Assembly (NCBI GenBank): GCA_000004985.1
Contig: GG738886.1
DNA from: Naegleria gruberi
Taxonomy: Eukaryota
Strand: one strand, 5' to 3'
DNA: 64,000 nucleotides
Position numbers and translations under genes: made by a program. The number at the start of each line of letters is the position of its first letter. Positions within the stretch are counted from its first letter, which is position 1. The notes under the pieces were generated by a model. That model was given only the letters and a program-made list of their open reading frames with translations. It searched no databases and had not been told where the DNA came from. Positions 27,290 to 63,205 of the stretch are shown piece after piece.

Positions 27290-30080
27290 ATGCAAACAAG
27301 TAGTACTAGTAAGAGAATTGATGCCTTGCCATCCACCATCCTTCCTACCCGATATAAAATTTTCTTAAATCCAGATTTGAAGAATTTTGTATTTGATGGT
27401 GAAGAAACTATTGAATTGAAAATTAATCCACAAGAATTATCATCAGATCATACTAATAGTATTGATAATCTATTAAAATCCATTGATCGTATAGTTACGA
27501 ATAGTAAAGAATTAAAAATTGATCAAGCCTTTTTAATGATCGGAGATGGTCATGGTCATAGGGTTGAATTTAAATCAATTGATTTTCATGAAGAGTTTGG
27601 AATTGTTAGTTTTGTATTGGAAAAGTCGTTAGATGAAATTTTGAATCAGTTAAATATCAAGGTTGATGATTTGAGTGTGTTTAGAATGTTTTTGCACTTG
27701 AAATTCAGAGGAGAATTGAATGACAAGTTGAATGGCTTTTATCGATCAAAGTATGTCAGAGATGGTGTTGAATCATATGCTGCAGTAACACAATTTCAAC
27801 CTGCCGATGCTAGAAAATGCTTTGTTTGTTGGGATGAACCAATTTATAAGGCAGTTTTTGAGATTTCACTTGTTGCTCCAAAGAATTACAAAGCACTGTC
27901 CAATATGAACTGCATTCAAGTGGATGATTATGATGAAAGTAGTAATCTTCACAAATTTTCTCCAACTCCTCCAATGTCAACCTATTTGGTTGCTGTTATT
28001 GTTGGTGATTTTGATTATGTTGAAACTATTTGTACAGAAACATCCAAGCCAATTCCTGTTCGTGTCTATACTCCAGTTGGAAAGAAGGAACAGGGTCTCT
28101 TCTCACTTGAAGTTACCTCTAAGGTATTGGCCCTTTTTGAAAAGTATTTCCAGGTGGAATATCCATTGCCTAAACTTGACATGATTGGAATTTCTCAATT
28201 GAGCTTTGGTGGAATGGAAAATTTTGGATTAATTACTTTCAGAGAGCAAATTGTTCTTGTTGATCCAATCAATACCTCTGCGGCTGCCAAGCAAAATGTT
28301 TCCATTGTTGTCGCTCACGAAGTATCACATCAATGGTTTGGAAATCATGTTACTCCAGCTTGGTGGGAATCATTGTGGTTAAACGAGAGTTATGCTACGT
28401 ATGTATTAATGGCCTACTGTATTTAATATTTACAATCAATTATTTGAAATAATGTTTTATGGAAATTATAGTTATTGGGAATACTTTGCTATTGATAATC
28501 TCTTCCCTGAGTGGGGCGTTTGGGAACAATTCGTTTATGCTGACTTTTTGAGAGCATTCGACTTGGATGGAAAGAGATCTACTCACCCAATTCAAGTATC
28601 AGTCAATTCTACTGCAGAAATCGATGAAGTTTTTGATGCCATCTCATATAGTAAGGGTTCATGTTGCGTTAGAATGTTAATTGAATGGCTTGGTATTGAC
28701 CAATTCAGAAAGGCAATTATTGCTTATTTGAACAAGTATGCCTTTTCCAATGCCAAAACTGAGGATTTGTGGACATCTTTGAAAGAATCACTCAATGTTG
28801 ATGCAGCATCCATGATGAAGAGTTGGATATATTCCTCAGGTTATCCTGTTGTAACCATCAAGGAACATTTGGAAGGTAACGAAAAGGTATTAACATTAAC
28901 ACAAAACAGATATTTGGAAGATGGAGGTTTGGATAGTGAGGATTCAACCATTTGGTACATTCCTATTTCCTATGTTTTGTGCAATAGTGATAATTCAATT
29001 ACAGAATTTAAAGAAACCATGAATGAAAAGAGCATGATTTTGAGAATTCCCGCCTCTTCCAAATGGATCAAATTCAACAAGAATCAAATTGGATTTTATC
29101 GCGTCAATTATCAAAGCTCTGAATATTATAGCAAATTGAAGGTCGCCATCAAGGAGAAGAAATTATCACCAATTGATAGAATGGCATTAATAGAGGAAAG
29201 TACAACCCTCTCAAAGAGTGGTCTTGTGCCAATTGAGCAAGTTTTATCATTATTTGAAGCCTATTCCTTAGAAGATAACTATACAGTCCTGACAACTGTT
29301 TCTTCCTGCTTGTCCACTATTGAAAATCTTATCAAACATGAATCAAGCCAAGCATTGGAAAAATTTGCAGCACTTGGAAGAAGTATTTTCCTTCATTTGA
29401 GAGATGATCTTGGTTGGACTCAACAAGAAAACGAAAGCCACTTGAGAAGCATGACCAGAAGTCTTGTATTCTCAAATCTTGTTAGTTACAATGACAAGGA
29501 AACTGTACAAAAGGCATTTGAAAAATTTGCTCAATTCAAGGTTGATCCATCAAGTTTAATTCCAGATTTGAGAAGTGTAGTATATTCAGCTGTTGTAAAA
29601 TATGGAAATGAGGAAGATTTCAAACAAGTTTTGAATGTCTATTTAACATCGGATTTAACTGAGGAAAAAGTGAGAGTTTTGAAATGTCTTGGCCAATCTC
29701 CAAATGAACAATTAATTGATGAAACAATCAATAGAACTCTTGACGGATCTGTTCTCACTCAAGATATTTCGTACATGTTAATGGGTCTATCACAAAATCC
29801 AAAAGCAAATGAAAAGCTCTGGAGATTCTTTTTCAAGAATTATGCAGCAATTAGACAAAAATTCCAAGCAGGACTATTATTTGGAAGAATCATCAAATTA
29901 TTCACTGAAAGTTCACTGAATCCACAACATGTTTCAGAAATTAAAGACGAATTAGACAAGGTTGCTACTAGTGCCATCTTGAGAACTGTCAATCAAGTTA
30001 AGGAAACTATTTCACTCAATAGTGCATGGAGTATTCGTTCAGCTCCTTCCATTGTTAATTGGTTAAATAAAATAGAATAA
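27290..30080 (+). CDS. M1-family aminopeptidase (aminopeptidase N / puromycin-sensitive-like), join(27290..28398,28472..30080).
   Basis: GGMEN exopeptidase motif (GGMENFG). Zinc motif HEVSHQWFGN...WLNESYA (HExxH-18-E). A 73-nt intron gtatgt..ttatag at phase 2 restores LNESYATYWEY. C-terminal ERAP1-like helical domain. Confidence 0.85.
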
Positions 30081-38153: not shown

Positions 38154-38567
38154 ATGTCCACTACTACAATTGAAGTCCCACAAGCATTCGGATGGGTCTT
38201 GCTTATGGCTGTTGCTCATGCCTTTGAACTTTTTGTATTTGGAGGAGTTGTCGGAAGCTATAGAAAGAAGCACAATGTCAAGTATCCTGATGTTACTGGA
38301 CCTGAGGAATTTAATCGTGCCATGAGAGTACATTACAATGCATTGGAAGGTGCTCCATTCTTCTTTGTTACCTTATTAATTTGTGGATTTTATTGGGCTG
38401 AATTAGCTGCCCTTGCTGGTTTCATTTACATTGTTGGTAGAGCTATTTATTGTGTGGGTTATCTTAAGAGTGTTGAAGGTAGAACTACTGGAGCAATTAT
38501 TTGTCATTTGGCCGAATTGATGTTGTTGATTGGTTCAATTGTTTTCATCTTTAAAATGATTGTGTAA
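38154..38567 (+). CDS. MAPEG-family protein (microsomal glutathione S-transferase 3 / LTC4-synthase-like).
   Basis: 137 aa with 3-4 TM helices. RAMRVHYNALEGAPFFFV...IVGRAIYCVGY matches the MGST3 pattern (RAHQNTLEVYPPFL...IVGRVLYAYGY). Confidence 0.75.
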   Translation: MSTTTIEVPQAFGWVLLMAVAHAFELFVFGGVVGSYRKKHNVKYPDVTGPEEFNRAMRVHYNALEGAPFFFVTLLICGFYWAELAALAGFIYIVGRAIYCVGYLKSVEGRTTGAIICHLAELMLLIGSIVFIFKMIV

Positions 38568-38652: not shown

Positions 38653-39878
38653 CTATTGGAAGTTTAATACAATGGTTAAATCACATAATCGTTTAGCTAG
38701 TCTTGTTTGTTGAAGTTTCCTTGCAAATTGGTCCAGTTTGGTATTCCTCTTTCTTGTCCGAGCAAGTAATTTCATTTCTCTTTTAGTATTTCCAATAATT
38801 TCTTCCGTTTTCATAGATTTCAGTATTGTGAAATCCGAAAATATTGTATCATTTAATTTGTAAACTGGTGTAATATCCCAATCTCTAAACTCATCAAAAT
38901 AGGGATGTAGAAGAGCTTGAGACACTGTCATTCGATTATTTGGATTGAATTGTAAAAGGTTTTCCAATAAATCCAACTCATTACTATCCAAATAGGAGAA
39001 TAAACTAGCTATCTGTCTCTTCTTTGGCTCACTTCCAATTACATTTTGAATGCAATCCTTAATCATTTCTGGTTTCGAAGAAATAAGTCCAATCTCTTCA
39101 TCTGTGGGCATTCCTAAAATTTCAATCATAGTAATGATCATATCAATAGTACTATTACTCCTTAACAATGGTTTTCGTAAAATAAGCTCAGCAAGTAGTA
39201 ATCCAACACAGAACATGTCCATTTTGGCAGTGCACGAAAAATTAGTAGAAAATAACTCTTCAGGACTTCGATGAGGATTATTCCAAAGATACACTGTAAC
39301 GAAAGTATCTCCTTCCCTTTGCCAATTAAGAAACCCTTGCAGTGTAATTTCGCATTCAGTATTGACCATAATATTGAATGGCCTGATTCCTAAATGCACA
39401 ATTCCATTCACATGTAAAATTCTCAATCCCACCAATAGCTGAAAAATTATATATTTTCTATGAATTAATTCCAAAGATAAACTCCTCAACACGGTATGAA
39501 TATCAAAGAATTCAACATAAGTGCTCATAATAATCAGATCTTTTCCGATAACTTTCAACCTGCTTCCTAAATTCAAAGCTTTACAATCGGAATTATTTAC
39601 ACTCAAATTAATCATCAACATGGCACTCCTACAAATCAGCAAATGGTAGGGATGTTCATCCTCCTCGGTTATTTCCTTCTCATCAAACAAATTACAATAT
39701 TGCTTGATAAATAATTTATTCTTCCCTCTGAACCCTTTATAACATTTCAAATACTTTTTTGAGAATTATAATTCATTCCAATTCGTTTTTCCAATCATGA
39801 TGAACCTACACTTTTGTCGGTTATTTTTTCGAGTGAATGAAAGGATTTCTCCAGGTAGCTCAAGCTATCTTGATTCAT
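38653..39878 (-). CDS. MAPK-like (CMGC) pseudokinase, complement(join(38653..39756,39810..39878)).
   Basis: MAPK-like FQLLVGLRILHVNGIVH...MDMFCVGLLLAELIL...ILGMP..EEI...LLHPYFDEF. Catalytic motifs are degenerate: HRD becomes HLGIRPFN, DFG becomes QGF, and there is no GxGxxG loop. The 23-aa first exon MNQDSLSYLEKSFHSLEKITDKS is joined by a 53-nt intron gtaggttc..aaaaag at phase 0. Confidence 0.6.
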
Positions 39879-39925
39879 TTTTTTTAAATTTTAAGGAATC
39901 CAGTTGAAAATTATTCTAAATAAGA

Positions 39926-41892
39926 TTATTTCATTAGAGAATCAATGCATTCTTTGAGAACTAATTTGTGGATTGGCTTTGTGAGTAGTTGATCAAAGAG
40001 TGGTGATTTCTCTATCAATACATCTCCTGTCAACGCTACAACCTTAATATCTCCTTGATGTCTATTTCTAAGAATTTTGGTTGCTTCAACTCCATCTAGA
40101 ACTGGCATATTCTATAAAGAAATATATTATTTTCTTTTAATTTAAAAGAAACTTACCAAATCTGTAATAATAAGCTTGTGCCTTCCCTTATCAAATAGTT
40201 CAATTAATTCTTTTCCGTCATTGGCAGCATCTACAGAATAACCAAGACTTTCAATAAGTTTTGTAATGACTCTCCTGTTCACAGAATTGTCATCAGCAAT
40301 TAGAATTTCAGCTTTCGAGTTGCTTGCCTTATTTTGACAGCAAGTTGAAAAGAGACGAATATAATTTTCTTGAATGGCTAGTTGTCTCTTGATGGAAGGA
40401 TCAATTTCGTGTAAAGATTCGCTACTATTCTTACTTCTCTCTAATTTGCATTGTACAATTTCCAAAGGAAGAATTACAGTGAATTCTGCTCCACAATTTT
40501 CATCAGATTCCAATGTAATATCTCCTCTCATGGCTTGAACATTGTGTTTTACAGTTGAAAGTCCTAATCCACTCCTTTTTAAAGGATTAAAAAATGTTTA
40601 AGCTACATCTATACGTACCCAGGAATGATTGACTGATTCAAATTATGTAACTGTGCAAAAGGTTCAAATATTTTGGCTTGTTTTGATTTTGGAATGCCAA
40701 TTCCGTTATCTTTCACTTTGAAAATGATATCTCTTTCAATAACTCCATTCACCTGTCGTTCATCTCCTTGGACAAAGCATTCCAAATCGATGGAATCTCC
40801 AATTTTTGATGCCTTTACGCCATTGGTCATAAGATTTGATATTACTTGATGTATTCTAGTTTGATTAGCTCTCACAAAGAGGTCTTTCGCTTGTTCATCA
40901 ATTGAGACGTTCACATTGACTTGAAATTGTTTCGAATAACTCTTAATGATATTTCCCATCATTTTCACACAGTTATTCAAACTAAATATTTTGAAAAACT
41001 TGGTAGCCTCTGAAGATTTATCATCTGACTTCTTTTCATGTTCAATTTTCACAAGTGTCAGAACATCCTCAATAAGATTGAGTAAAATTCCATCCGAGGA
41101 GGCAATTGTCTCAACTAACTCTCTTTGATATTCTGTTAGATTTGTCTCTCTCAACAATTCAACACTTCCCAAACTACTCAAACAAGGAGATCTAAACTCA
41201 TGACTGATATGGCGAATAAAAACTTCCTTACTTGACAAGGCCATTTCTAACTCCTTTGCTGTTTGTTCCAATTTTGTTATTTTTGATTGGAGAGCTGAGG
41301 ATGTTGACAATACATAATAGCTCAATAAATAAATACACAAAGCAGTTGCCAAATTCTCGAATATTAACTCTATCGAATTCGAAAAGATCAAACTATGAAC
41401 TATTGTTCCACAATATAAGAAAAATGTTACAAAGAATGGAGCCAACGTATAATGCAATGAAGTCATCGTGTTTGATGACATGAGTATCAAAATATACATT
41501 GGAGAAAGGAGAGCCCGATTATCTGCCACCAAGAAGTACCTAAAACAAAACAAGAGCAATGAAACAGTCATTCTAACCTTTTCCTCTGCCTCTGTAGATC
41601 TCACAAGGCCCACTCCAAGCATGGAACGAATAAATTTTCCATTCACTATAACTCCAAATATAATACTACTCGTCATGATGATTAAATGTTGCCATCCCTT
41701 ACAAAATGAATAAGCAATCAGAAGGGCATACTCCATTATTAGTACTTTTAAAATTACGTTATCCTTCATAGGAAGCGTAAGTACATGTTTAAAGAAGGGT
41801 CTTAGTCTCGGATGTAAACTATCATATATTGCTTGATCCTCCAAATCCAAGGCAAATCCTCTCAAGGGATCCACTACTAATTTTCCCACCAT
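39926..41892 (-). CDS. Membrane-bound hybrid sensor histidine kinase (multi-TM N-terminus, HisKA, HATPase_c, REC), complement(join(39926..40111,40157..40574,40619..41892)).
   Basis: H-box IRHISHEFRSPCLSSL. N/G boxes NLMTNGVKAS and VKDNGIGIP. After the 44-nt intron, G2 SGLGLS. Receiver domain ILIADDNSVNRRV...LIITDL|NMPVLDGVEATKILRN...VVALTG...LTKP is split by a 45-nt intron gtaagt..tatag. Five to six N-terminal TM helices. Confidence 0.8.
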
Positions 41893-42263
41893 AATATTTA
41901 TCTACAGTTCGTTGTGTTGTTGTTTGTAAAAAAATTCTCTGCACAGGCAAACTTGTGTGATGAGGAGGTTTTTTTGTTCTCAAGCAAGCAGTAAAGTTCT
42001 TGATATTGTTGGTGGGGTGGTGACATGTTGTGAAGAGAGAGGGAGTTAATGAGTAAGAACTGAACATGATGAGCTCTAAACCTTAATAAGGACATGGATG
42101 GGAGATAAAATACAGAGGTCCAGATCCTCAGGAATTGAAAGATAAAAAGGTGGCCAATAAGATGTACTGCAATGGATAACACTATTAAAGTTAAATATTT
42201 TACAACACTTCCATTTGGTCTAGCTTTCCTTTATGTAAACAAATACAGAATTGCCATTAAATA

Positions 42264-43023
42264 TTAACCCAGGAAAACTTCACATTTACTGTACATTTTT
42301 CCATTCTTGTTGGAGGTGGCGAGGAAATGAAGCTTATCGACTGTGAATCTGATTGGTTTGGTGAATAAGGTTTCGAGCATTTTCTTTCGTTTCAATAGAT
42401 CTTTCTGTTGAGTAACATATTAAATAATGACAAAATTAAGAGTTTACCCTGATTTTGTAATGTAAACTTACAGTTTTAACATAGGAAATTGAAATATGAG
42501 GAACATATTCATGATTCTCTACAATATTAAAACACTCTACTATTAAATCATGCAATTGAATCAATAATTCATCTTTCCTCTCATCTCCAATCCAAACTTT
42601 AGGTTTCATTACAATAATTGAATTAATTGTATGTTCGAAAATATCCAACTCATCAAGTTCAATATCAAATGGTTGTATATCATGCTCCTTTAACAGTTGT
42701 TTCAACTTTCCTTTCGCCACACTGAATCCTGCCTGAGCAACGAAAGGGTAAGCACTGAAATAAAATCCGAAACAGTTATAACTCATCTAGATCTGTTGAA
42801 AAACTACATACACATTGATGTGTGCTGGCCAACAGGATTTATTTCCCTCATAGTCCAACACTTCATGTTCGGGATGGTGAGGAAATAATTGTGGCCACAA
42901 ATCGAGTGGTGGAATAATAGTACAAGCAGTGCTGACAGTTGTGTAAGTAGAAGAACTTGTTGTTGGTGCCTCGTCAGAAGAAGAAGAATTATCAGATGAT
43001 GATGCTTTTTGTTGCTTTTTCAT
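42264..43023 (-). CDS. 2H-phosphoesterase-like protein (LigT/CPDase-like, tentative), complement(join(42264..42404,42448..42754,42812..43023)).
   Basis: Three ORF pieces join in frame through 57-nt (gtatgt..ttcag) and 43-nt (gtaaac..caacag) introns. There is one clear H-x-S/T-x motif, PHISISY. The expected first motif reads AHINV, which is why the call is tentative. Confidence 0.4.
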
Positions 43024-43162: not shown

Positions 43163-44145
43163 CTAATACTGATTATATTTAAACATAATGTAAAGTACCA
43201 AGGCACTTTGAAACCAATTCAGAAAAGTTCCCTCCGTAATGGTTCTATTCTGTTTGAGCTCTGCCAGAACAGAACCGACATCTAGAACAATCTGATTACT
43301 ACTTGCTAATGAGGCGGCAATTGAATCATCCTCGAATGGATTTTCCAAATCTTCATCTCCTTCATCCAATACATCCTTTATAATTAAAATGTCTTGACCT
43401 AGTCCTCGTTCGCCCATTACTTCTCTCAAATGTGTCAATAATTTATCGAATTGACTTCTTGACATTGTATAGCAACTTTCCTCGACGTTAAAAGTTTTTG
43501 CATATCTATAGAACACATATCTTGAGATCCAATTATCTGTTTCATCAATTGATAATTTAACTTCATGAGGTTCAACATATTCCAGTTCAGAATCAAAATC
43601 TGCATATAAATCTCCACTCTTTTCACATTCTACCAAATCACTCTTCAATCTATCAATTTCTATCAATCCTTTATCCATCAATTCATTAATTTTAAGAATG
43701 GTGTCAACACAACAAGCCACAATATTCCGTTGATGAAGTGATTGTTTGAAATTATTACAATGTACAGTATTTACAAGTTTTTTCTTCTTTATAGAAGTTT
43801 CCTTCTTCTTTTGCTTCTCCTCCGATGAGGAATCATAATTCAATGCAGGAGGACCCTGATACAAATGATTAAAACTTTCTTCTTATCATTTGCATCATCC
43901 TTTTCCTCATCCTCCTCGGCTACCTGATTAGAGATTTGATTCCTCTCAAACAGCACTGATCCATTCAATATAAGTCTATCAATGATATTTAAAATTGATT
44001 GTCGTTGCTTTAAAAGGGTATCCTGATCAAGCATTGATAGAGTATCAGCTCCACCACCCATCAAATAGTCATCACGATAAGTCCTCCTATGATTGTTATT
44101 ATTATTTAGGAAGAGACAGAGTCCATCATCATAATCGGACAACAT
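43163..44145 (-). CDS. Acidic hypothetical protein, complement(join(43163..43855,43924..44145)).
   Basis: ATG at 44145. The two ORFs join in phase 0 across a 68-nt intron (gtagcc..tatcag). Lys-rich and acidic stretches. No recognised domain. Confidence 0.4.
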
Positions 44146-46502: not shown

Positions 46503-49500
46503 ATGATGATCAAAACGACAGAGTTGAGATCGATATTAGTATCCGCATTATTATTCTTCTTCTTGTTAATCATAGTATTTTGTGGATCGATATTTGGGTT
46601 GAGTGGATTTACTTTCGATCAGGATGCATACAACAAGATTTGGAATGATGAAACGGAAATTTGGTTTGGTCAATCGACAGCTCTTACAGGTCAAACTAAA
46701 GAGTGAGTAATCTTTTCTCCAATTATTATAATGATGTAAAGACTAGGATATCCAATGATGACAGGAGTTCAGGCAGCCTTTAAAGAAATCAATGAAAATT
46801 CTGGTGGAGTTTGGGGAGGTAAAAAACTGAGGTTAATTACATTGGATGATGGTTATGAGCCAGCTAGAACTGTAAATAATACGATTCAGCTCATTAATAA
46901 TAACACAATATTTGGATTGATTGGATATATGGGGACAGGTACTTCGCAAGCTGCATTTCCATATCTTACTGAATCAAAACTTCCATTTATTGGTGCATTC
47001 ACGGGAGGATTGTTTTTGAGAACACCTTTTGTTTCTAATATTGTGAATATTAGAGCTAGTTATCAAGACGAAACTGTAGCTATGGTAGAATATTTAGTTA
47101 CAGTAAAAATGGTGAGGAGAATTGCAATCTTTTATCAGAATGATGCATTCGGCATGTCAGGGGTTGATGGTTCTAGTTTGGCATTGACGGCTCTTGGAAT
47201 GAGTTTAGTTTCAAGAGGTTCTTATGAAAGAAATACTATTGTTGTCGCGAAGGCAGTTTCAGATATTGTTGCTGGAAATCCACAGGCAATTATCTGCATG
47301 TCAACATACAAACCAACATTGGAATTTATCAATACAGTCAAGAATAGGACAGATTTTGACCCAAACATTGTTTTCATGACTGGCTCTTTTATTGGTTCTA
47401 ATATTTTACCATACAGAGATAGTGTTGTCATTACTCAGGTATTACCTCCACCAACCAACACAAAATACCCAATTGTTCTAGCCTATCAGAGAGCTATGAA
47501 AGCATCCAATCCAAATTTCGTGCCTTCCTATGTGGAATTGGAAGGATACATTGCTGGAAAGATGGCAGCAAATATATTGACTCAAAGAGTTTCTGGAGAT
47601 TTGACACGCAGTAATTTTCTTCAACTTGTCTATTCCACTAGTACCTATATTATTGATAATCAAGTTATTGGACCGTACAAGCAATGTAGCTCTTCTAGAT
47701 CCTTGCATTACTTTTTTGATGATCCTCAAAATCAAGATGCCTTTCTCTATCCAGTTTTACAACCACGTACAAGATTGATACCACGAAAAATTGAATCAAC
47801 ATTTGTTGCGCCTTGCTCTTGTAATCAAGGTTTGAGATCTATTTGGAAAACTTCTCAAAATGCTGATAGTTCATTTAGTGAAATTTCAGATCCAATGGTT
47901 TGGGATACTACTAGTACTACTAATTATACCTGCTTCTATGATCCAACAAAGACTCTCCCACCAATTGTATTTGGACACATATCATCTGGAGATAAGTATG
48001 ATGAAGATTTTCTAGTTGGAGTGTTATTAGCATTCAACGAAAAAAACAATCAAAAAGGTATACGTGGAAGCGTGCTAAGAATTCTCACAAAAACCCCATC
48101 CAATAGTTCTGCTTCTGCCCTTATTGATACAGTTAATTTGTTGAAAAATGATTTTAATGTACTTGGAATTTTGGGTGGATTTTTACCAAGTTCTAGTTAT
48201 GCTCAATTCGTAGATCAGTTTAAAACTCAATTACCTAACACATTGTTTCTATCGCCTTCCACATCATATGACTCTCCAACATTGAGAAGTGTATTTTCTC
48301 CAAATATTATTCATATTGGATTATCTATTCGTGAAAAGTTGGCCACCTTTTTCGATTTTGAAATGAATGCAAATGGGCATTCCAGATTTTCTGTAGTATA
48401 TGGTAAATCCACTGAAGGGGCAGCAGATTGTAAAGAGTTCAAGAACCAATTGAGCCAATTTGGATTAACTGTTGAGAGTGAATATGAACATTCATCATCT
48501 GTTACAGATTACAAGTTAGTCACACAAGCACTTGTTTCAAATGATGGTAACCCTCAATCTGTTGTTGTTCTACTTCCTGAAAATATATCCTCATTCTCTT
48601 ATTTGAGTACTGTAATCAAGGGTATTGTGAATATTGGAAAGAGAGATGACTTGTCAATATTCTTTTTGTACTTTAAATATACATCTTGGGTGGCAGATGT
48701 TTTTAACTTGATGGCTAGTCTTAATACCAAAAATAATGTATATCTTATTCAAAGATATCCTCATGTTGTGGACACTCAATTACCTTTAGTTGCAGCTTAC
48801 AATAATTTGTTCAGCAAGTATTATTCTTCTTCTGTTTCTACAACTGGATCTTTAGAAGGTTTTTTGGCTGCAAGCTTTTTAATTGAAGTTTTGGAGAATA
48901 TTTCTCCATCTGCAGATATTAATGGACCAAGTACAATTTTCACAATTTACCAAACGCAACAATTTTTGAAATATTCCATTCCATTTGGTAATTTCATTAG
49001 TAATTCTTGCAATTTGGGCATGAGAACAACCTATTTGTACAAGCTGGACGGATCGACCTTTACAAATGTCAAAATTCAATCATTTGACAAGACTAAATGT
49101 GGTCTTTCAGAAGATATTTTTTCCTCTGAAAGTTCCATTGAAAAACAACTTTTATTTGGTAGATTACTACCCGTGGAAGATGCTTCACTTCCATATGATG
49201 ATTTTAGTGTTGGTTTGAATGCATTATTCACATCTTATAACACTAAGGGAACACTGGATACTGCAACTTTGCACTTAAAAACTCTGTACTATTCAAGCAG
49301 AGAGGAAATGACCAAGAAGGCAGAGGAGCTCATTCTAAAATACAAAATTTTTGGATTTTTAGGATCTAGACTAGTCTATGATGTTACTGAACTCAAGGCT
49401 ATAATGGAAAATTACAAGATACCAATTATAGGTCCACTTTCTTCTCAGTTAGCTTTGAGAGAACCTTACTCAAGGTTTGTGGTCAATTTAAGACCTAGCA

Positions 49501-51176
49501 TTGTTGAGGAATCTGTAGTTTTGACAAGATATCTGACCTCTGTTATTACCTCAAGAAAACCAACAGTTCTCATTCTCAGCGGATCATCTTACTATTGGCA
49601 GCAAAATAGTAATAATGTTGTTTCATTTTATTCGAAGAGTATTGAAGGAGTTTCGATTTCATCAACTAGTATTTCGTCAGTCTCTTCCACTTCTGGTAGA
49701 GCTGTAGAAGGTTCTAAGCCAGACTTGGTTCTTTTGTTGGCCTCTCCAACAGAAGTTTCACAATTTCTAACCAACTATCCCACTTTTTCCTCTCTAATTG
49801 GAATACCTTCAGAAATTTCATCTATTTCTAGTTTCAAAACACTCTTAAATGATATACCTTCTTCAGTAATAATTAGTCCTCAATTTTTAGAAAGGTATGA
49901 TAAGGCTTCATCAACAAACTTTATGGCCAGAGATTTCTTGATAGACATGGCCAAATACTCAACCTCATCAAATACCTCCACACTAATGTATGAAGCTTAT
50001 GCAGTGGGTTATATGACAACAACTGTTCTCAAGTTCATGTCCCAAGCCAATATGGATTATAGCAGAGAAAAATTTGTTTCCACATTTTTCGAGAGGTCTG
50101 TATTTGAATTAGGAAATAATGAATTTGGACCGTATGGCGATGAGTGCTCCATACAATCCACTTTTGTAGTGAAAGGCTCTTGTGAATCTGTTTCTGTTTG
50201 TAATTGTAGTCAAGGCGTGAGAGCTCTTCAAATCAATTCTCTAACCTCATCCTCGGATAGTATTTTATATGAAATGAATTTCAAAACATGTGGATTGCAA
50301 GCTATTGAACCACTTCTTTCAGATGGAGCCATTGCTGGTGTTGCTGTTGGGGGTACACTAGCTTTTTTAGGTACTCTATTTGTTATACTAGTACTGATTT
50401 TCTGTGCAAGAAATAGATCCTCAGTTAAGAATGCTCCCAAGTCAGGAAATATCACTTGTGCATTTACGGATGTTCAAAGCAGTACAAAACTTTGGCAAAA
50501 TAATGAAAAGGCTATGAGAAATGCATTAGAAATTCATGACAAGATTATGAGGAAAAATCTTGAATTATTCAGAGGTTATGAGGTCAAGACAAATGGTGAT
50601 AGTTTCTTTGTTGCCTTTAAGGATCCATTTGATGCTGTTTTATGGTCTTTAACAGTTCAATTAGATTTATTGAATGCGAATTGGCCTTCAGAATTATATC
50701 ACGAATATGATTGCAGACAGGAATGGGATGAACGAATCAAGAAACCTTATTGGAGTGGATTGAGAGTGAGAATTGGACTTCATTACGGAAAGGGAGATTG
50801 CAAATGGGATAAAACCATGAAACGCTTCGACTATTTTGGAACAGTTGTAAACAAGTCAGCACGTATTGAAGCATTAGCACATGGAGGACAAGTTTTGATC
50901 AGTGAAGAATTATTGGAAGTAACTAAAGACCTCTTCCAAGATGTTAAGAAAATAGCCAGTTGTGATGAATTTCCAGCCTATCAAACCACTACAAAAGAGG
51001 AGAAGAAACTAGCTGTGGACGACAAAACCTCAACAACAGCTAGTCTCAAACATCAAAATTCTCTCTCTAGTGTATTGGGTAGGAGAAGAACTAAAATTCT
51101 AATTGATAGAACATTCACAGCCGCTGAGTTGGGAGTTTATCCATTGAAGGGACTATCTGAATCGAGCAGACTTTTC
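46503..51176 (+). CDS. Receptor-type class III adenylate/guanylate cyclase: signal peptide, three tandem periplasmic-binding-protein type I (LivK/ANF-receptor-like) modules, one TM, cyclase domain. Model join(46503..46702,46742..>51176); the 3' end is lost in the N gap.
   Basis: Signal-like exon 1 MMIKTTELRSILVSALLFFFLLIIVF. A 39-nt intron gtgagt..gtaaag gives ...ALTGQTKELGYPMMTGVQAAFKEINENSGGVWGGKKL, the LivK N-terminal signature. TM AIAGVAVGGTLAFLGTLFVILVLIFC. Cyclase motifs FTDVQSSTKLW...GYEVKTNGDSFFVAFKD...LRVRIGLHYG...DYFGTVVNKSARIEALAHGGQVLISEE. The ORF then runs into the 50-N gap at 51177. Confidence 0.8.
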
Positions 51177-51226
51177 NNNNNNNNNNNNNNNNNNNNNNNN
51201 NNNNNNNNNNNNNNNNNNNNNNNNNN
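51177..51226. other. Assembly gap (50 N).
   Basis: Run of n. Confidence 0.95.
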
Positions 51227-51230
51227 TTAG

Positions 51231-52788: not shown

Positions 52789-55700
52789 NNNNNNNNNNNN
52801 NNNNNNNNNNNNNNNNNNNNNNNNNNNNNNNNNNNNNNNNNNNNNNNNNNNNNNNNNNNNNNNNNNNNNNNNNNNNNNNNNNNNNNNNNNNNNNNNNNNN
52901 NNNNNNNNNNNNNNNNNNNNNNNNNNNNNNNNNNNNNNNNNNNNNNNNNNNNNNNNNNNNNNNNNNNNNNNNNNNNNNNNNNNNNNNNNNNNNNNNNNNN
53001 NNNNNNNNNNNNNNNNNNNNNNNNNNNNNNNNNNNNNNNNNNNNNNNNNNNNNNNNNNNNNNNNNNNNNNNNNNNNNNNNNNNNNNNNNNNNNNNNNNNN
53101 NNNNNNNNNNNNNNNNNNNNNNNNNNNNNNNNNNNNNNNNNNNNNNNNNNNNNNNNNNNNNNNNNNNNNNNNNNNNNNNNNNNNNNNNNNNNNNNNNNNN
53201 NNNNNNNNNNNNNNNNNNNNNNNNNNNNNNNNNNNNNNNNNNNNNNNNNNNNNNNNNNNNNNNNNNNNNNNNNNNNNNNNNNNNNNNNNNNNNNNNNNNN
53301 NNNNNNNNNNNNNNNNNNNNNNNNNNNNNNNNNNNNNNNNNNNNNNNNNNNNNNNNNNNNNNNNNNNNNNNNNNNNNNNNNNNNNNNNNNNNNNNNNNNN
53401 NNNNNNNNNNNNNNNNNNNNNNNNNNNNNNNNNNNNNNNNNNNNNNNNNNNNNNNNNNNNNNNNNNNNNNNNNNNNNNNNNNNNNNNNNNNNNNNNNNNN
53501 NNNNNNNNNNNNNNNNNNNNNNNNNNNNNNNNNNNNNNNNNNNNNNNNNNNNNNNNNNNNNNNNNNNNNNNNNNNNNNNNNNNNNNNNNNNNNNNNNNNN
53601 NNNNNNNNNNNNNNNNNNNNNNNNNNNNNNNNNNNNNNNNNNNNNNNNNNNNNNNNNNNNNNNNNNNNNNNNNNNNNNNNNNNNNNNNNNNNNNNNNNNN
53701 NNNNNNNNNNNNNNNNNNNNNNNNNNNNNNNNNNNNNNNNNNNNNNNNNNNNNNNNNNNNNNNNNNNNNNNNNNNNNNNNNNNNNNNNNNNNNNNNNNNN
53801 NNNNNNNNNNNNNNNNNNNNNNNNNNNNNNNNNNNNNNNNNNNNNNNNNNNNNNNNNNNNNNNNNNNNNNNNNNNNNNNNNNNNNNNNNNNNNNNNNNNN
53901 NNNNNNNNNNNNNNNNNNNNNNNNNNNNNNNNNNNNNNNNNNNNNNNNNNNNNNNNNNNNNNNNNNNNNNNNNNNNNNNNNNNNNNNNNNNNNNNNNNNN
54001 NNNNNNNNNNNNNNNNNNNNNNNNNNNNNNNNNNNNNNNNNNNNNNNNNNNNNNNNNNNNNNNNNNNNNNNNNNNNNNNNNNNNNNNNNNNNNNNNNNNN
54101 NNNNNNNNNNNNNNNNNNNNNNNNNNNNNNNNNNNNNNNNNNNNNNNNNNNNNNNNNNNNNNNNNNNNNNNNNNNNNNNNNNNNNNNNNNNNNNNNNNNN
54201 NNNNNNNNNNNNNNNNNNNNNNNNNNNNNNNNNNNNNNNNNNNNNNNNNNNNNNNNNNNNNNNNNNNNNNNNNNNNNNNNNNNNNNNNNNNNNNNNNNNN
54301 NNNNNNNNNNNNNNNNNNNNNNNNNNNNNNNNNNNNNNNNNNNNNNNNNNNNNNNNNNNNNNNNNNNNNNNNNNNNNNNNNNNNNNNNNNNNNNNNNNNN
54401 NNNNNNNNNNNNNNNNNNNNNNNNNNNNNNNNNNNNNNNNNNNNNNNNNNNNNNNNNNNNNNNNNNNNNNNNNNNNNNNNNNNNNNNNNNNNNNNNNNNN
54501 NNNNNNNNNNNNNNNNNNNNNNNNNNNNNNNNNNNNNNNNNNNNNNNNNNNNNNNNNNNNNNNNNNNNNNNNNNNNNNNNNNNNNNNNNNNNNNNNNNNN
54601 NNNNNNNNNNNNNNNNNNNNNNNNNNNNNNNNNNNNNNNNNNNNNNNNNNNNNNNNNNNNNNNNNNNNNNNNNNNNNNNNNNNNNNNNNNNNNNNNNNNN
54701 NNNNNNNNNNNNNNNNNNNNNNNNNNNNNNNNNNNNNNNNNNNNNNNNNNNNNNNNNNNNNNNNNNNNNNNNNNNNNNNNNNNNNNNNNNNNNNNNNNNN
54801 NNNNNNNNNNNNNNNNNNNNNNNNNNNNNNNNNNNNNNNNNNNNNNNNNNNNNNNNNNNNNNNNNNNNNNNNNNNNNNNNNNNNNNNNNNNNNNNNNNNN
54901 NNNNNNNNNNNNNNNNNNNNNNNNNNNNNNNNNNNNNNNNNNNNNNNNNNNNNNNNNNNNNNNNNNNNNNNNNNNNNNNNNNNNNNNNNNNNNNNNNNNN
55001 NNNNNNNNNNNNNNNNNNNNNNNNNNNNNNNNNNNNNNNNNNNNNNNNNNNNNNNNNNNNNNNNNNNNNNNNNNNNNNNNNNNNNNNNNNNNNNNNNNNN
55101 NNNNNNNNNNNNNNNNNNNNNNNNNNNNNNNNNNNNNNNNNNNNNNNNNNNNNNNNNNNNNNNNNNNNNNNNNNNNNNNNNNNNNNNNNNNNNNNNNNNN
55201 NNNNNNNNNNNNNNNNNNNNNNNNNNNNNNNNNNNNNNNNNNNNNNNNNNNNNNNNNNNNNNNNNNNNNNNNNNNNNNNNNNNNNNNNNNNNNNNNNNNN
55301 NNNNNNNNNNNNNNNNNNNNNNNNNNNNNNNNNNNNNNNNNNNNNNNNNNNNNNNNNNNNNNNNNNNNNNNNNNNNNNNNNNNNNNNNNNNNNNNNNNNN
55401 NNNNNNNNNNNNNNNNNNNNNNNNNNNNNNNNNNNNNNNNNNNNNNNNNNNNNNNNNNNNNNNNNNNNNNNNNNNNNNNNNNNNNNNNNNNNNNNNNNNN
55501 NNNNNNNNNNNNNNNNNNNNNNNNNNNNNNNNNNNNNNNNNNNNNNNNNNNNNNNNNNNNNNNNNNNNNNNNNNNNNNNNNNNNNNNNNNNNNNNNNNNN
55601 NNNNNNNNNNNNNNNNNNNNNNNNNNNNNNNNNNNNNNNNNNNNNNNNNNNNNNNNNNNNNNNNNNNNNNNNNNNNNNNNNNNNNNNNNNNNNNNNNNNN

Positions 55701-58700
55701 NNNNNNNNNNNNNNNNNNNNNNNNNNNNNNNNNNNNNNNNNNNNNNNNNNNNNNNNNNNNNNNNNNNNNNNNNNNNNNNNNNNNNNNNNNNNNNNNNNNN
55801 NNNNNNNNNNNNNNNNNNNNNNNNNNNNNNNNNNNNNNNNNNNNNNNNNNNNNNNNNNNNNNNNNNNNNNNNNNNNNNNNNNNNNNNNNNNNNNNNNNNN
55901 NNNNNNNNNNNNNNNNNNNNNNNNNNNNNNNNNNNNNNNNNNNNNNNNNNNNNNNNNNNNNNNNNNNNNNNNNNNNNNNNNNNNNNNNNNNNNNNNNNNN
56001 NNNNNNNNNNNNNNNNNNNNNNNNNNNNNNNNNNNNNNNNNNNNNNNNNNNNNNNNNNNNNNNNNNNNNNNNNNNNNNNNNNNNNNNNNNNNNNNNNNNN
56101 NNNNNNNNNNNNNNNNNNNNNNNNNNNNNNNNNNNNNNNNNNNNNNNNNNNNNNNNNNNNNNNNNNNNNNNNNNNNNNNNNNNNNNNNNNNNNNNNNNNN
56201 NNNNNNNNNNNNNNNNNNNNNNNNNNNNNNNNNNNNNNNNNNNNNNNNNNNNNNNNNNNNNNNNNNNNNNNNNNNNNNNNNNNNNNNNNNNNNNNNNNNN
56301 NNNNNNNNNNNNNNNNNNNNNNNNNNNNNNNNNNNNNNNNNNNNNNNNNNNNNNNNNNNNNNNNNNNNNNNNNNNNNNNNNNNNNNNNNNNNNNNNNNNN
56401 NNNNNNNNNNNNNNNNNNNNNNNNNNNNNNNNNNNNNNNNNNNNNNNNNNNNNNNNNNNNNNNNNNNNNNNNNNNNNNNNNNNNNNNNNNNNNNNNNNNN
56501 NNNNNNNNNNNNNNNNNNNNNNNNNNNNNNNNNNNNNNNNNNNNNNNNNNNNNNNNNNNNNNNNNNNNNNNNNNNNNNNNNNNNNNNNNNNNNNNNNNNN
56601 NNNNNNNNNNNNNNNNNNNNNNNNNNNNNNNNNNNNNNNNNNNNNNNNNNNNNNNNNNNNNNNNNNNNNNNNNNNNNNNNNNNNNNNNNNNNNNNNNNNN
56701 NNNNNNNNNNNNNNNNNNNNNNNNNNNNNNNNNNNNNNNNNNNNNNNNNNNNNNNNNNNNNNNNNNNNNNNNNNNNNNNNNNNNNNNNNNNNNNNNNNNN
56801 NNNNNNNNNNNNNNNNNNNNNNNNNNNNNNNNNNNNNNNNNNNNNNNNNNNNNNNNNNNNNNNNNNNNNNNNNNNNNNNNNNNNNNNNNNNNNNNNNNNN
56901 NNNNNNNNNNNNNNNNNNNNNNNNNNNNNNNNNNNNNNNNNNNNNNNNNNNNNNNNNNNNNNNNNNNNNNNNNNNNNNNNNNNNNNNNNNNNNNNNNNNN
57001 NNNNNNNNNNNNNNNNNNNNNNNNNNNNNNNNNNNNNNNNNNNNNNNNNNNNNNNNNNNNNNNNNNNNNNNNNNNNNNNNNNNNNNNNNNNNNNNNNNNN
57101 NNNNNNNNNNNNNNNNNNNNNNNNNNNNNNNNNNNNNNNNNNNNNNNNNNNNNNNNNNNNNNNNNNNNNNNNNNNNNNNNNNNNNNNNNNNNNNNNNNNN
57201 NNNNNNNNNNNNNNNNNNNNNNNNNNNNNNNNNNNNNNNNNNNNNNNNNNNNNNNNNNNNNNNNNNNNNNNNNNNNNNNNNNNNNNNNNNNNNNNNNNNN
57301 NNNNNNNNNNNNNNNNNNNNNNNNNNNNNNNNNNNNNNNNNNNNNNNNNNNNNNNNNNNNNNNNNNNNNNNNNNNNNNNNNNNNNNNNNNNNNNNNNNNN
57401 NNNNNNNNNNNNNNNNNNNNNNNNNNNNNNNNNNNNNNNNNNNNNNNNNNNNNNNNNNNNNNNNNNNNNNNNNNNNNNNNNNNNNNNNNNNNNNNNNNNN
57501 NNNNNNNNNNNNNNNNNNNNNNNNNNNNNNNNNNNNNNNNNNNNNNNNNNNNNNNNNNNNNNNNNNNNNNNNNNNNNNNNNNNNNNNNNNNNNNNNNNNN
57601 NNNNNNNNNNNNNNNNNNNNNNNNNNNNNNNNNNNNNNNNNNNNNNNNNNNNNNNNNNNNNNNNNNNNNNNNNNNNNNNNNNNNNNNNNNNNNNNNNNNN
57701 NNNNNNNNNNNNNNNNNNNNNNNNNNNNNNNNNNNNNNNNNNNNNNNNNNNNNNNNNNNNNNNNNNNNNNNNNNNNNNNNNNNNNNNNNNNNNNNNNNNN
57801 NNNNNNNNNNNNNNNNNNNNNNNNNNNNNNNNNNNNNNNNNNNNNNNNNNNNNNNNNNNNNNNNNNNNNNNNNNNNNNNNNNNNNNNNNNNNNNNNNNNN
57901 NNNNNNNNNNNNNNNNNNNNNNNNNNNNNNNNNNNNNNNNNNNNNNNNNNNNNNNNNNNNNNNNNNNNNNNNNNNNNNNNNNNNNNNNNNNNNNNNNNNN
58001 NNNNNNNNNNNNNNNNNNNNNNNNNNNNNNNNNNNNNNNNNNNNNNNNNNNNNNNNNNNNNNNNNNNNNNNNNNNNNNNNNNNNNNNNNNNNNNNNNNNN
58101 NNNNNNNNNNNNNNNNNNNNNNNNNNNNNNNNNNNNNNNNNNNNNNNNNNNNNNNNNNNNNNNNNNNNNNNNNNNNNNNNNNNNNNNNNNNNNNNNNNNN
58201 NNNNNNNNNNNNNNNNNNNNNNNNNNNNNNNNNNNNNNNNNNNNNNNNNNNNNNNNNNNNNNNNNNNNNNNNNNNNNNNNNNNNNNNNNNNNNNNNNNNN
58301 NNNNNNNNNNNNNNNNNNNNNNNNNNNNNNNNNNNNNNNNNNNNNNNNNNNNNNNNNNNNNNNNNNNNNNNNNNNNNNNNNNNNNNNNNNNNNNNNNNNN
58401 NNNNNNNNNNNNNNNNNNNNNNNNNNNNNNNNNNNNNNNNNNNNNNNNNNNNNNNNNNNNNNNNNNNNNNNNNNNNNNNNNNNNNNNNNNNNNNNNNNNN
58501 NNNNNNNNNNNNNNNNNNNNNNNNNNNNNNNNNNNNNNNNNNNNNNNNNNNNNNNNNNNNNNNNNNNNNNNNNNNNNNNNNNNNNNNNNNNNNNNNNNNN
58601 NNNNNNNNNNNNNNNNNNNNNNNNNNNNNNNNNNNNNNNNNNNNNNNNNNNNNNNNNNNNNNNNNNNNNNNNNNNNNNNNNNNNNNNNNNNNNNNNNNNN

Positions 58701-61073
58701 NNNNNNNNNNNNNNNNNNNNNNNNNNNNNNNNNNNNNNNNNNNNNNNNNNNNNNNNNNNNNNNNNNNNNNNNNNNNNNNNNNNNNNNNNNNNNNNNNNNN
58801 NNNNNNNNNNNNNNNNNNNNNNNNNNNNNNNNNNNNNNNNNNNNNNNNNNNNNNNNNNNNNNNNNNNNNNNNNNNNNNNNNNNNNNNNNNNNNNNNNNNN
58901 NNNNNNNNNNNNNNNNNNNNNNNNNNNNNNNNNNNNNNNNNNNNNNNNNNNNNNNNNNNNNNNNNNNNNNNNNNNNNNNNNNNNNNNNNNNNNNNNNNNN
59001 NNNNNNNNNNNNNNNNNNNNNNNNNNNNNNNNNNNNNNNNNNNNNNNNNNNNNNNNNNNNNNNNNNNNNNNNNNNNNNNNNNNNNNNNNNNNNNNNNNNN
59101 NNNNNNNNNNNNNNNNNNNNNNNNNNNNNNNNNNNNNNNNNNNNNNNNNNNNNNNNNNNNNNNNNNNNNNNNNNNNNNNNNNNNNNNNNNNNNNNNNNNN
59201 NNNNNNNNNNNNNNNNNNNNNNNNNNNNNNNNNNNNNNNNNNNNNNNNNNNNNNNNNNNNNNNNNNNNNNNNNNNNNNNNNNNNNNNNNNNNNNNNNNNN
59301 NNNNNNNNNNNNNNNNNNNNNNNNNNNNNNNNNNNNNNNNNNNNNNNNNNNNNNNNNNNNNNNNNNNNNNNNNNNNNNNNNNNNNNNNNNNNNNNNNNNN
59401 NNNNNNNNNNNNNNNNNNNNNNNNNNNNNNNNNNNNNNNNNNNNNNNNNNNNNNNNNNNNNNNNNNNNNNNNNNNNNNNNNNNNNNNNNNNNNNNNNNNN
59501 NNNNNNNNNNNNNNNNNNNNNNNNNNNNNNNNNNNNNNNNNNNNNNNNNNNNNNNNNNNNNNNNNNNNNNNNNNNNNNNNNNNNNNNNNNNNNNNNNNNN
59601 NNNNNNNNNNNNNNNNNNNNNNNNNNNNNNNNNNNNNNNNNNNNNNNNNNNNNNNNNNNNNNNNNNNNNNNNNNNNNNNNNNNNNNNNNNNNNNNNNNNN
59701 NNNNNNNNNNNNNNNNNNNNNNNNNNNNNNNNNNNNNNNNNNNNNNNNNNNNNNNNNNNNNNNNNNNNNNNNNNNNNNNNNNNNNNNNNNNNNNNNNNNN
59801 NNNNNNNNNNNNNNNNNNNNNNNNNNNNNNNNNNNNNNNNNNNNNNNNNNNNNNNNNNNNNNNNNNNNNNNNNNNNNNNNNNNNNNNNNNNNNNNNNNNN
59901 NNNNNNNNNNNNNNNNNNNNNNNNNNNNNNNNNNNNNNNNNNNNNNNNNNNNNNNNNNNNNNNNNNNNNNNNNNNNNNNNNNNNNNNNNNNNNNNNNNNN
60001 NNNNNNNNNNNNNNNNNNNNNNNNNNNNNNNNNNNNNNNNNNNNNNNNNNNNNNNNNNNNNNNNNNNNNNNNNNNNNNNNNNNNNNNNNNNNNNNNNNNN
60101 NNNNNNNNNNNNNNNNNNNNNNNNNNNNNNNNNNNNNNNNNNNNNNNNNNNNNNNNNNNNNNNNNNNNNNNNNNNNNNNNNNNNNNNNNNNNNNNNNNNN
60201 NNNNNNNNNNNNNNNNNNNNNNNNNNNNNNNNNNNNNNNNNNNNNNNNNNNNNNNNNNNNNNNNNNNNNNNNNNNNNNNNNNNNNNNNNNNNNNNNNNNN
60301 NNNNNNNNNNNNNNNNNNNNNNNNNNNNNNNNNNNNNNNNNNNNNNNNNNNNNNNNNNNNNNNNNNNNNNNNNNNNNNNNNNNNNNNNNNNNNNNNNNNN
60401 NNNNNNNNNNNNNNNNNNNNNNNNNNNNNNNNNNNNNNNNNNNNNNNNNNNNNNNNNNNNNNNNNNNNNNNNNNNNNNNNNNNNNNNNNNNNNNNNNNNN
60501 NNNNNNNNNNNNNNNNNNNNNNNNNNNNNNNNNNNNNNNNNNNNNNNNNNNNNNNNNNNNNNNNNNNNNNNNNNNNNNNNNNNNNNNNNNNNNNNNNNNN
60601 NNNNNNNNNNNNNNNNNNNNNNNNNNNNNNNNNNNNNNNNNNNNNNNNNNNNNNNNNNNNNNNNNNNNNNNNNNNNNNNNNNNNNNNNNNNNNNNNNNNN
60701 NNNNNNNNNNNNNNNNNNNNNNNNNNNNNNNNNNNNNNNNNNNNNNNNNNNNNNNNNNNNNNNNNNNNNNNNNNNNNNNNNNNNNNNNNNNNNNNNNNNN
60801 NNNNNNNNNNNNNNNNNNNNNNNNNNNNNNNNNNNNNNNNNNNNNNNNNNNNNNNNNNNNNNNNNNNNNNNNNNNNNNNNNNNNNNNNNNNNNNNNNNNN
60901 NNNNNNNNNNNNNNNNNNNNNNNNNNNNNNNNNNNNNNNNNNNNNNNNNNNNNNNNNNNNNNNNNNNNNNNNNNNNNNNNNNNNNNNNNNNNNNNNNNNN
61001 NNNNNNNNNNNNNNNNNNNNNNNNNNNNNNNNNNNNNNNNNNNNNNNNNNNNNNNNNNNNNNNNNNNNNNNNN
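52789..61073. other. Assembly gap (8,285 N).
   Basis: Run of n. The two giant ORFs of 2,972 and 2,901 aa across it are artefacts of translating N. Confidence 0.95.
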
Positions 61074-61236: not shown

Positions 61237-62214
61237 TCAATAAATTAATTTCATAGCTACTAGATTGGGATTAGTAGATTCATCAAACTTGTCTTCAACA
61301 AGAATTATTCTTAACAAGTATTCCATCAAAATTCTAGAACTAATTCTCTTTTGTTTGTCAATTTGTAGACAAGCTATTATAGCCCATTTTAGGTCTGAAT
61401 TGGGTAATTTCTTATTGAAAGCTTTCAAGATGAATTTATCAATTTCTGGTTGAGTCTTGAAATCTCTATGGAAATCAGTTGTCTTATCTTCAGATAAAAG
61501 TCTGTAAATGATTACACCAAGACACCAAATATCCAAAGATGATCCAACTTCATTAGTGGGAGGATTGTTATGTAATCTGCCAATATTTGTACAAGTAATT
61601 CTACTACTATCCACAACTTCGCACATTTCAAAATCTGCTAATCTAATTTTCACATTACCAGTTTTTTCATCATATTCTTCAACAAATATATTATCCAATT
61701 CAATATCTCTATGCACTACTTTCGAATTTTGATCTGCATGTAATGCTCGGAGAGCTTTAGAAAGCTGGTAAGTCAATAATGCAATTGTGTTTTCGGATAA
61801 ATTTGTCTTTTTAGAGAGTTGTTGCAAATCTCCAATTTCATAAAACGGCATCAATGTATACACATAACTGTCTCCTTCATAAAATCCCAAAATTTCAACA
61901 ATATGATGATGATTCAATAAAGATACAACCCGAGCAGCATTCCTCTCCCTCTCCAAAACTTCGTATTGTTCTGGTTCCTCCTCTTCATCAACCCTCCTTA
62001 CCACCCGAACAACAATATTGCGAATATTATTGTTATTATTCTTCTCGTAGTCAGAAACATTTTGATTAGCCTCATCCCCAACAACTTCCGAGAGACATTG
62101 TAGTACCGTTGCTCTTTCGCTATTGCTTTTGAGTATTTTTATTTGTGAATATTTACAGCCAGTTAATTGTTCCAATTCCACGAAAAAGTAGGTCTTGTGG
62201 AGTCTGCTTGACAT
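61237..62214 (-). CDS. Divergent protein kinase-like protein (CAMK-like catalytic loop, atypical DFE motif); possibly a pseudokinase. Subtelomeric.
   Basis: HRDIELDN catalytic loop, ADFEMCE in place of DFG, SLDIWCLGVIIYRLL (subdomain IX), no glycine-rich loop. ATG at 62214. 325 aa in a single exon. Confidence 0.55.
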   Translation of the reverse strand: MSSRLHKTYFFVELEQLTGCKYSQIKILKSNSERATVLQCLSEVVGDEANQNVSDYEKNNNNNIRNIVVRVVRRVDEEEEPEQYEVLERERNAARVVSLLNHHHIVEILGFYEGDSYVYTLMPFYEIGDLQQLSKKTNLSENTIALLTYQLSKALRALHADQNSKVVHRDIELDNIFVEEYDEKTGNVKIRLADFEMCEVVDSSRITCTNIGRLHNNPPTNEVGSSLDIWCLGVIIYRLLSEDKTTDFHRDFKTQPEIDKFILKAFNKKLPNSDLKWAIIACLQIDKQKRISSRILMEYLLRIILVEDKFDESTNPNLVAMKLIY

Positions 62215-63155: not shown

Positions 63156-63205
63156 NNNNNNNNNNNNNNNNNNNNNNNNNNNNNNNNNNNNNNNNNNNNN
63201 NNNNN
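63156..63205. other. Assembly gap (50 N).
   Basis: Run of n. Confidence 0.95.

Follow-up and report, generated by a model that had tools for sequence, protein, structure and literature searches.

The DNA analysed here, called the window, is a stretch of 64,000 nucleotides of the Naegleria gruberi contig GG738886.1 (assembly GCA_000004985.1), with a GC content of about 33% and short introns with GT..AG ends. Two genes on its minus strand were investigated: a hybrid sensor histidine kinase gene, designated as HK, and a mitogen-activated protein kinase (MAPK)-like gene, designated as PK. The origin of the window from N. gruberi was confirmed by the HK region, which was 100% identical to XP_002674170.1 (NAEGRDRAFT_70850). 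The results favored, with a probability of roughly 0.6, the explanation that HK and PK are separate, intact genes of N. gruberi that lie side by side in this lineage only and do not form a signalling module. A direct coupling of HK to the pseudokinase encoded by PK is not needed for the data. The gene models and the spacer between them were as follows.

39926-41892, minus strand: HK, 625 aa, exons 41892-40619, 40574-40157, and 40111-39926; equal to NAEGRDRAFT_70850 / XP_002674170.1 with the N-terminus corrected.
38653-39878, minus strand: PK, a MAPK-derived predicted pseudokinase of 389 aa, exons 39878-39810 and 39753-38653.
39879-39925, minus strand: AT-rich spacer of 47 bp from the HK stop codon (39928-39926) to the PK ATG (39878), based on the sequence and the gene models.

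A preliminary description of this DNA had placed a three-exon HK tail-to-head with a MAPK-like gene, with less than 50 bp between the ends of the coding sequences (CDS). This arrangement was present on the minus strand, and the gap was 47 bp, a figure that rests on the model of PK exon 1.

The conservation of the pair was investigated in eight HK-homologue loci from N. fowleri, N. lovaniensis, and Willaertia magna. The loci of N. lovaniensis were C9374_008361/008360 (a tandem pair), C9374_008347, and C9374_014302; those of N. fowleri were FDP41_006311 with its tandem neighbor, FDP41_006325, and FDP41_012257, together with an N. fowleri-like contig from ENA; the locus of W. magna was ABK040_002655. 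A tblastn search with PK (E<=1) found no kinase-like sequence within 10 kb on either side of the eight loci, and their gene tables listed no annotated protein kinase adjoining HK. Downstream of FDP41_012257 were a 176-aa protein and an ankyrin/zf-MYND protein. The pair was therefore not conserved in the relatives examined (0 of 8 HK-homologue loci with a kinase-like sequence nearby), and the suggestion in the preliminary description that PK is a scaffold or regulatory partner of HK is unsupported, the adjacency being absent at all eight.

Two flanking genes made it possible to compare the position of the block itself.

38154-38567, plus strand: MAPEG gene (Pfam 8e-23), converging on the PK 3' end, 85 bp away; orthologues FDP41_006333 and C9374_008337.
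42264-43023, minus strand: LigT-like gene (2',5' RNA ligase family, Pfam PF13563), upstream of HK.

In N. fowleri and N. lovaniensis, the MAPEG gene (+) was followed by the LigT-like gene (-), tail-to-tail and about 118 bp apart, with nothing between them; PK gave no tblastn match (E<=1) at these two loci. In N. gruberi, the distance from MAPEG to the LigT-like gene was 3.7 kb, and it held exactly HK and PK (about 3.3 kb). Analysis by tblastx revealed that the MAPEG gene, the LigT-like gene, the gene at 43163-44145, and the cyclase gene at 46755-51230 of the window were orthologous to neighbors in the relatives. No repeats or transposon-like boundaries were found flanking the HK and PK block. 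Among the genomes compared, the adjacency of HK and PK is specific to the N. gruberi lineage. The two genes would have come to lie between MAPEG and the LigT-like gene through a change of gene order: either they were inserted in the N. gruberi lineage, or the ancestor shared by N. fowleri and N. lovaniensis lost them.

At the related loci, the same-strand CDS gaps (n = 37) had a median of 212 bp; one of them was 47 bp or less, and eight were 100 bp or less. The gap between HK and PK is short, yet within the range of these compact genomes. Fritz-Laylin et al. (2010) reportedly counted about 265 protein kinases among the about 15,700 genes of N. gruberi. On these counts, about one adjacency between an HK and a kinase gene is expected by chance among 24-28 HKs.

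Three points weigh against separate genes that are neighbors without functional meaning. The gap of 47 bp lies near the bottom of the distribution (36 of the 37 gaps in related genomes were longer), and at such a distance either the PK promoter overlaps the HK 3' end or the genes are co-transcribed. A single block between conserved flanks would also fit a unit that moved together. Finally, the search of the relatives covered the loci named above, and an unlinked, unannotated PK orthologue may exist elsewhere in their genomes.

These points bear on the alternative that HK and PK form a functional module, co-transcribed or co-regulated, with PK as the scaffold or output partner of HK in a logic like that of Sln1-Hog1 or ETR1-CTR1. 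The shared strand and the short gap agree with it, as do the position of both genes in one block and the maintenance of PK as an open gene, and histidine kinases fused to protein-kinase domains occur in Physarum (PMC4758236). Nevertheless, a module is improbable: the adjacency was absent from all eight loci of the three other heterolobosean genomes, including that of the closest N. fowleri homologue, FDP41_012257; a clear orthologue of the pseudokinase was not found in relatives; and about one such adjacency is expected by chance. Co-regulation of the pair, if it were shown, would reveal a new connection between two-component receptors and MAPK-type signalling in an early-branching eukaryote, and the comparative evidence argues against this.

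Separate genes remain the preferred explanation. The kinase-like part of PK was delimited as follows.

38887-39836, minus strand: kinase-like domain of PK, aa 15-312, from the homologue alignment, the AlphaFold2 (AF2) model, and Foldseek.

PK matched the Pfam family Pkinase with 73 bits, and its top 60 sequence matches in PDB were all MAPKs, the best being ERK1 and ERK2 at 1e-32 to 1e-29 (ERK1: 1.2e-32, 116 bits). In a HMMER search of 1.84e9 representative proteins, the first match was its own 189-aa fragment, the only close one. Ranks 2-5 were proteins with two tandem kinase domains, whose scores were inflated by the two domains. Further matches were MAPK15/ERK7-like and other MAPK-like proteins of ciliates, apicomplexans, and metagenomes (30-38% identity), with MAPK15-like matches from Paramecium and metagenomes scoring 120-129 bits. 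The AF2 model of PK exon 2 showed a complete two-lobed kinase fold (pLDDT 83, pTM 0.82), and the best Foldseek matches of this model were ERK2 (TM score about 0.65-0.7), ERK1, p38, and Arabidopsis MPK4, a fold match that is partly circular as the AF2 input alignment consisted of MAPKs. The class given in the preliminary description, CMGC/MAPK-like, holds: MAPKs were best in both sequence and fold, so a class outside CMGC was not seen.

Residue losses in PK were judged against an alignment of about 145 MAPK-like homologues. The Gly-loop was degenerate, GxGxxG being replaced by TDKSYL (ITDKSYL, residues 19-25); the alphaC Glu was replaced by S66; HRD was replaced by HLG (H143-L-G145), with Arg and Asp gone; the position of DFG was occupied by QGF (Q162-G-F164) or GFL, with Asp gone; and the P+1 segment TRWYRAPE was changed to NNPHRSPE. 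The loss of the Gly-loop, the HRD Asp, and DFG that had been described for PK was thus confirmed in the alignment, and the described signature LLHPYFDEF was present at residues 304-312. PK kept the beta3 Lys (K40), the HRD His, N150, S186-P-E188 (with the APE Glu), the alphaF Asp (D202), and R297, and it retained 30 of 63 strongly conserved columns. T176-V-Y178 was in register with the TEY/TDY of ERK1 and 79 homologues. At the common-docking site, RDWDITP, the first Asp aligned with that of ERK DPxDEP, and the second acidic residue was Ile. The C-terminal helices, in the region of the L16 extension, were modelled at pLDDT 60-78.

From the catalytic set of active MAPKs, only K40 and N150 remain in PK, and a predicted kinase fold that lacks the Asp of HRD as well as that of DFG is that of a pseudokinase. 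PK is therefore predicted to be a MAPK-descended (ERK/ERK7-like) pseudokinase and not a canonically active MAPK, and it is predicted to carry out no phosphotransfer by the canonical mechanism. Pseudokinases of MAPK or wider CMGC origin are uncommon. Several independent MAPK-like proteins with degenerate motifs were found in protists by the searches. No second copy of HK or PK was found in the window. A second protein kinase gene (61237-62214, minus strand; Pkinase, 94 bits) was located at the edge of a large assembly gap and was unrelated to PK at E<=1e-3.

PK exon 2 was open over 366 codons, although PK had only 30-36% identity to any MAPK. With a stop probability of 7.4% per codon, from the base composition of the window, the chance of such a frame was about 6e-13; when 52 kb were shuffled 200 times, the longest run free of stops reached 205 codons. 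The open frame argues for a real coding gene rather than a decaying copy. The losses in PK were at catalytic positions, and the retained residues were biased to the structural core, a pattern that fits a maintained non-catalytic protein. Neutral drift to about 30-35% identity would not leave the frame open; therefore, long-term selection on the PK frame is implied.

The opposite possibility is that PK is a duplicated, inactive, and decaying MAPK, whose adjacency to HK is without meaning. It would account for the loss of every key catalytic residue, the failure to find a clear orthologue, and the genome annotation, which has merely a 189-aa fragment. The donor of the PK intron, GTAGGT, is not the commonest form, and the protein cluster of PK had one member, with no second copy (such as a transcript assembly) in the collection. 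However, an open exon of 366 codons in a genome of 33% GC exceeded the longest chance run, about 30-35% identity was reached without a stop or frameshift, the losses were catalytic while the core was kept, and AF2 gave a complete kinase fold. A relic is accordingly unlikely, to about the same degree as a functional module.

No clear PK orthologue was found by a word-index search, by HMMER over the 1.84e9 representatives, or by a JGI metagenome scan. The word-index search returned one canonical MAPK only, and the metagenome scan returned one generic MAPK (26% identity). MAPK-like proteins with degenerate HRD and/or DFG were P0175, P0206, P0221 (Pelomyxa schiedti), P0227, P0228 (Arcella intermedia), and P0258. 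Among them, P0227, which is encoded on ENA/Logan contigs of 14-52 kb, was a MAPK15-like pseudokinase of 367 aa. It had in common with PK the changes of HRD to (Y)LG and of (A/C)DFG to LQG, and the Gly-loops of both were degenerate (KQSYSLCYK in P0227 vs DKSYLKCYK in PK). The alignment with P0227 covered PK residues 1-312, and the two shared five identical deviations at conserved columns, compared with 0-2 in other pairs. P0227 had no TxY. In a neighbor-joining (NJ) tree, the grouping of PK with P0227 had a bootstrap value of only 22%, so no robust group was found. P0227 is the one candidate orthologue of PK and could revive the idea of a module. No paper was found that names either locus tag or accession, and none that ties Naegleria pseudokinases to MAPKs.

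A bolder possibility is that HK and PK are a co-transcribed cassette that was moved or lost as a unit, in which the TxY-bearing dead MAPK is the dedicated adaptor of HK to a MAPK cascade, and PK belongs to an 'LG/LQG' family of ERK7-like pseudokinases that includes P0227. Such a cassette would provide a direct link from a His-Asp system to a MAPK-like protein in Discoba; we consider it very unlikely.

The domains of HK were located as follows.

41293-41775, minus strand: multi-pass membrane (sensor) region, about aa 40-200, from AF2 helices, hydropathy, and conservation.
41035-41229, minus strand: HisKA / DHp domain, aa 222-286, with the H-box and H231 in SHEFRSP (Pfam PF00512, 3.8e-12).
40460-40866, minus strand: HATPase_c domain, spanning intron 1 (Pfam PF02518, 5.4e-23), with the N box NLMTNG, G1 box DNGIGIP, F box IFEPF, and G2 box GSGLGL.
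39944-40306, minus strand: REC receiver domain, spanning intron 2 (PF00072, 3.6e-18), with ADDN at 518-521 (DD519-520), the phospho-acceptor D563, T592, and K609.

The Pfam hits, together with the hydropathy and the AF2 helices, confirmed the membrane HK with HisKA, HATPase, and REC that had been described. H231 was invariant across 12 HK homologues, and the catalytic boxes H, N, G1, F, and G2 and the receiver residues were all intact; HK is therefore predicted to be catalytically competent. HK shared 43-52% identity with its homologues from N. gruberi, N. fowleri, and N. lovaniensis; Willaertia also had homologues. In a rough NJ tree, the closest relative of HK was N. fowleri FDP41_012257. 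HK is an ordinary member of the heterolobosean/Naegleria expansion of hybrid HKs and is already in RefSeq. N. gruberi was reported to have 24 HKs, mostly hybrids with several transmembrane (TM) segments (Kabbara et al. 2018, PMC6324907), or alternatively 28 HK and 33 receiver domains (PMC11589745).

HK probably acts through a conventional relay. A stimulus at the membrane domain would trigger autophosphorylation of His231, the phosphate would be passed to Asp563 in HK's own receiver, and from Asp563 it would go to a histidine phosphotransfer (HPt) protein and then to a response regulator. PK, if it has any role, would probably serve MAPK-type signalling without catalysis, as a decoy, a scaffold, or an allosteric binder.

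The N. fowleri HK paralogues FDP41_006311 and FDP41_006325 (VFQX01000051.1) are about 25 kb apart and have an identical stretch of 234 aa. The ENA contig ERZ2098899 links the upstream context of one of these paralogue loci with the downstream context of the other. This pattern indicates gene conversion or assembly collapse.

The AF2 model of the HK membrane region (pLDDT 79) had six helices in residues 44-214, and hydropathy analysis showed four segments with a Kyte-Doolittle value of at least 1.5. F115, R118, P131, and P152 were invariant in 12 heterolobosean homologues. No Pfam domain was found in aa 1-220, and the region had no specific fold match in PDB. The region is a candidate for the core that senses a ligand or signal. 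A C-x4-H pair had also been pointed out in this region, with no claim of homology to ethylene receptors. The pair is present in HK as C64 and H69; as a metal pocket it found no support, being kept in 0 of 11 homologues, in which the Cys position was occupied by Y/K/L/H/I and the His position by G/S/T/I/A/N. A metal site like that of the ethylene receptors (ETR) was rejected, as C64 and H69 occur only in this protein. HKs of the ETR type have three N-terminal TM helices with conserved Cu(I)-binding Cys/His and further ethylene-binding residues, which HK does not show. According to Kabbara et al. (PMC6324907), none of the HKs of N. gruberi is homologous to the known groups.

The main value of the analysis lies in annotation, where neither RefSeq model is correct: NAEGRDRAFT_70850 is chimeric, and NAEGRDRAFT_70849 is a fragment. 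The HK introns of 44 nt (40618-40575) and 45 nt (40156-40112) had GT..AG ends, and both are also used in XP_002674170.1. The protein P0002 was 100% identical to HK, covering 87% of its length. XP_002674170.1 (753 aa) joins the upstream LigT-like gene to HK codon 85 (41640-43023, minus strand). The 84 codons that it skips (HK 1-84) aligned well with the N-termini of the N. fowleri and N. lovaniensis homologues, and their omission removes two conserved TM helices. In these two species, the LigT-like gene is a separate gene of 193-194 aa. Because codons 1-84 are conserved and the LigT-like gene is separate in relatives, XP_002674170.1 is a LigT-like/HK chimera, and the HK start at 41892 is right.

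The second model, XP_002674169.1 (NAEGRDRAFT_70849, 'predicted protein', 189 aa), equals the last 189 aa of PK and covers the C-lobe half only. The PK intron was 56 nt long (39809-39754) with GT..AG ends. Exon 1 was modelled from two observations: an in-frame TAA lies directly 5' of exon 2, yet the N-lobe homology reaches the first codon of exon 2; and in BLASTP, P0227 aligned from Met1 over the splice junction.

The gene models also decide against a single HK-REC-pseudokinase fusion gene, made by splicing that removes the HK stop or by its readthrough: although the strand is shared, the gap is only 47 bp, and a phase-0 GTATTG in HK exon 3 might in principle be spliced in frame to the acceptor of PK exon 2, such a gene was rejected as having next to no probability, since the HK C-terminus ends at the same position as in homologues of three species, the hypothetical splice would remove the conserved receiver Lys609, and PK has its own ATG exon, aligned from Met1 with P0227.

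Other features of the window were also recorded. Runs of N (assembly gaps) were present at 51177-51226, 52789-61073, and 63156-63205; the 8.3-kb gap accounts for spurious open reading frames (ORFs) about 2900 aa long, and the cyclase ORF is truncated at its 3' end by the first gap. The cyclase gene (46755-51230, plus strand) encodes a nucleotide cyclase of the receptor type, in which periplasmic-binding-protein and ANF-receptor domains are combined with Guanylate_cyc; N. fowleri and N. lovaniensis have it conserved next to their MAPEG and LigT-like genes, with the order rearranged. An M1 aminopeptidase (27290-30080, plus strand) extended over two adjacent ORFs, with Peptidase_M1_N/M1 in the first and M1/ERAP1_C in the second; the two ORFs most likely belong to a single gene that contains a short intron.

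Comparison with known systems showed that HK has the same architecture (multi-TM, HisKA, HATPase_c, REC) as the multi-TM hybrid HKs of Naegleria and other heteroloboseans (Excavata groups II-IV, PMC6324907). Its genomic position differed from that of all the heterolobosean homologues examined. PK resembled ERK1/2 and ERK7/MAPK15 in having T-x-Y and SPE in register and the C-terminal HPYF..F; unlike ERK-type MAPKs, it lacked the Gly-loop, the alphaC Glu, the HRD Arg and Asp, the DFG Asp, and TRWYRAPE, and only one of the two acidic common-docking residues aligned. Phosphorelays feed MAPK cascades in yeast, through Sln1-Ypd1-Ssk1 to Ssk2/22-Pbs2-Hog1, and plants have ETR1-CTR1. As in the analogy drawn by the preliminary description, this locus has a hybrid HK together with a MAPK-family protein; however, the link in Sln1-Hog1 and ETR1-CTR1 is a response regulator or a receptor-bound Raf-like MAPKKK, and not gene adjacency or a dead MAPK. 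The present analysis found no sign that HK and PK are coupled. In the fungal group X HKs, the HK is fused to a protein-kinase domain. The same is found in the SHKPs of Physarum (PMC4758236). Both have an HK physically joined to a Ser/Thr-kinase-like domain, whereas in N. gruberi the two are encoded by different genes, between which lie a stop codon and 47 bp, with PK having an ATG exon of its own, and the kinase-like part is MAPK-derived and lies downstream.

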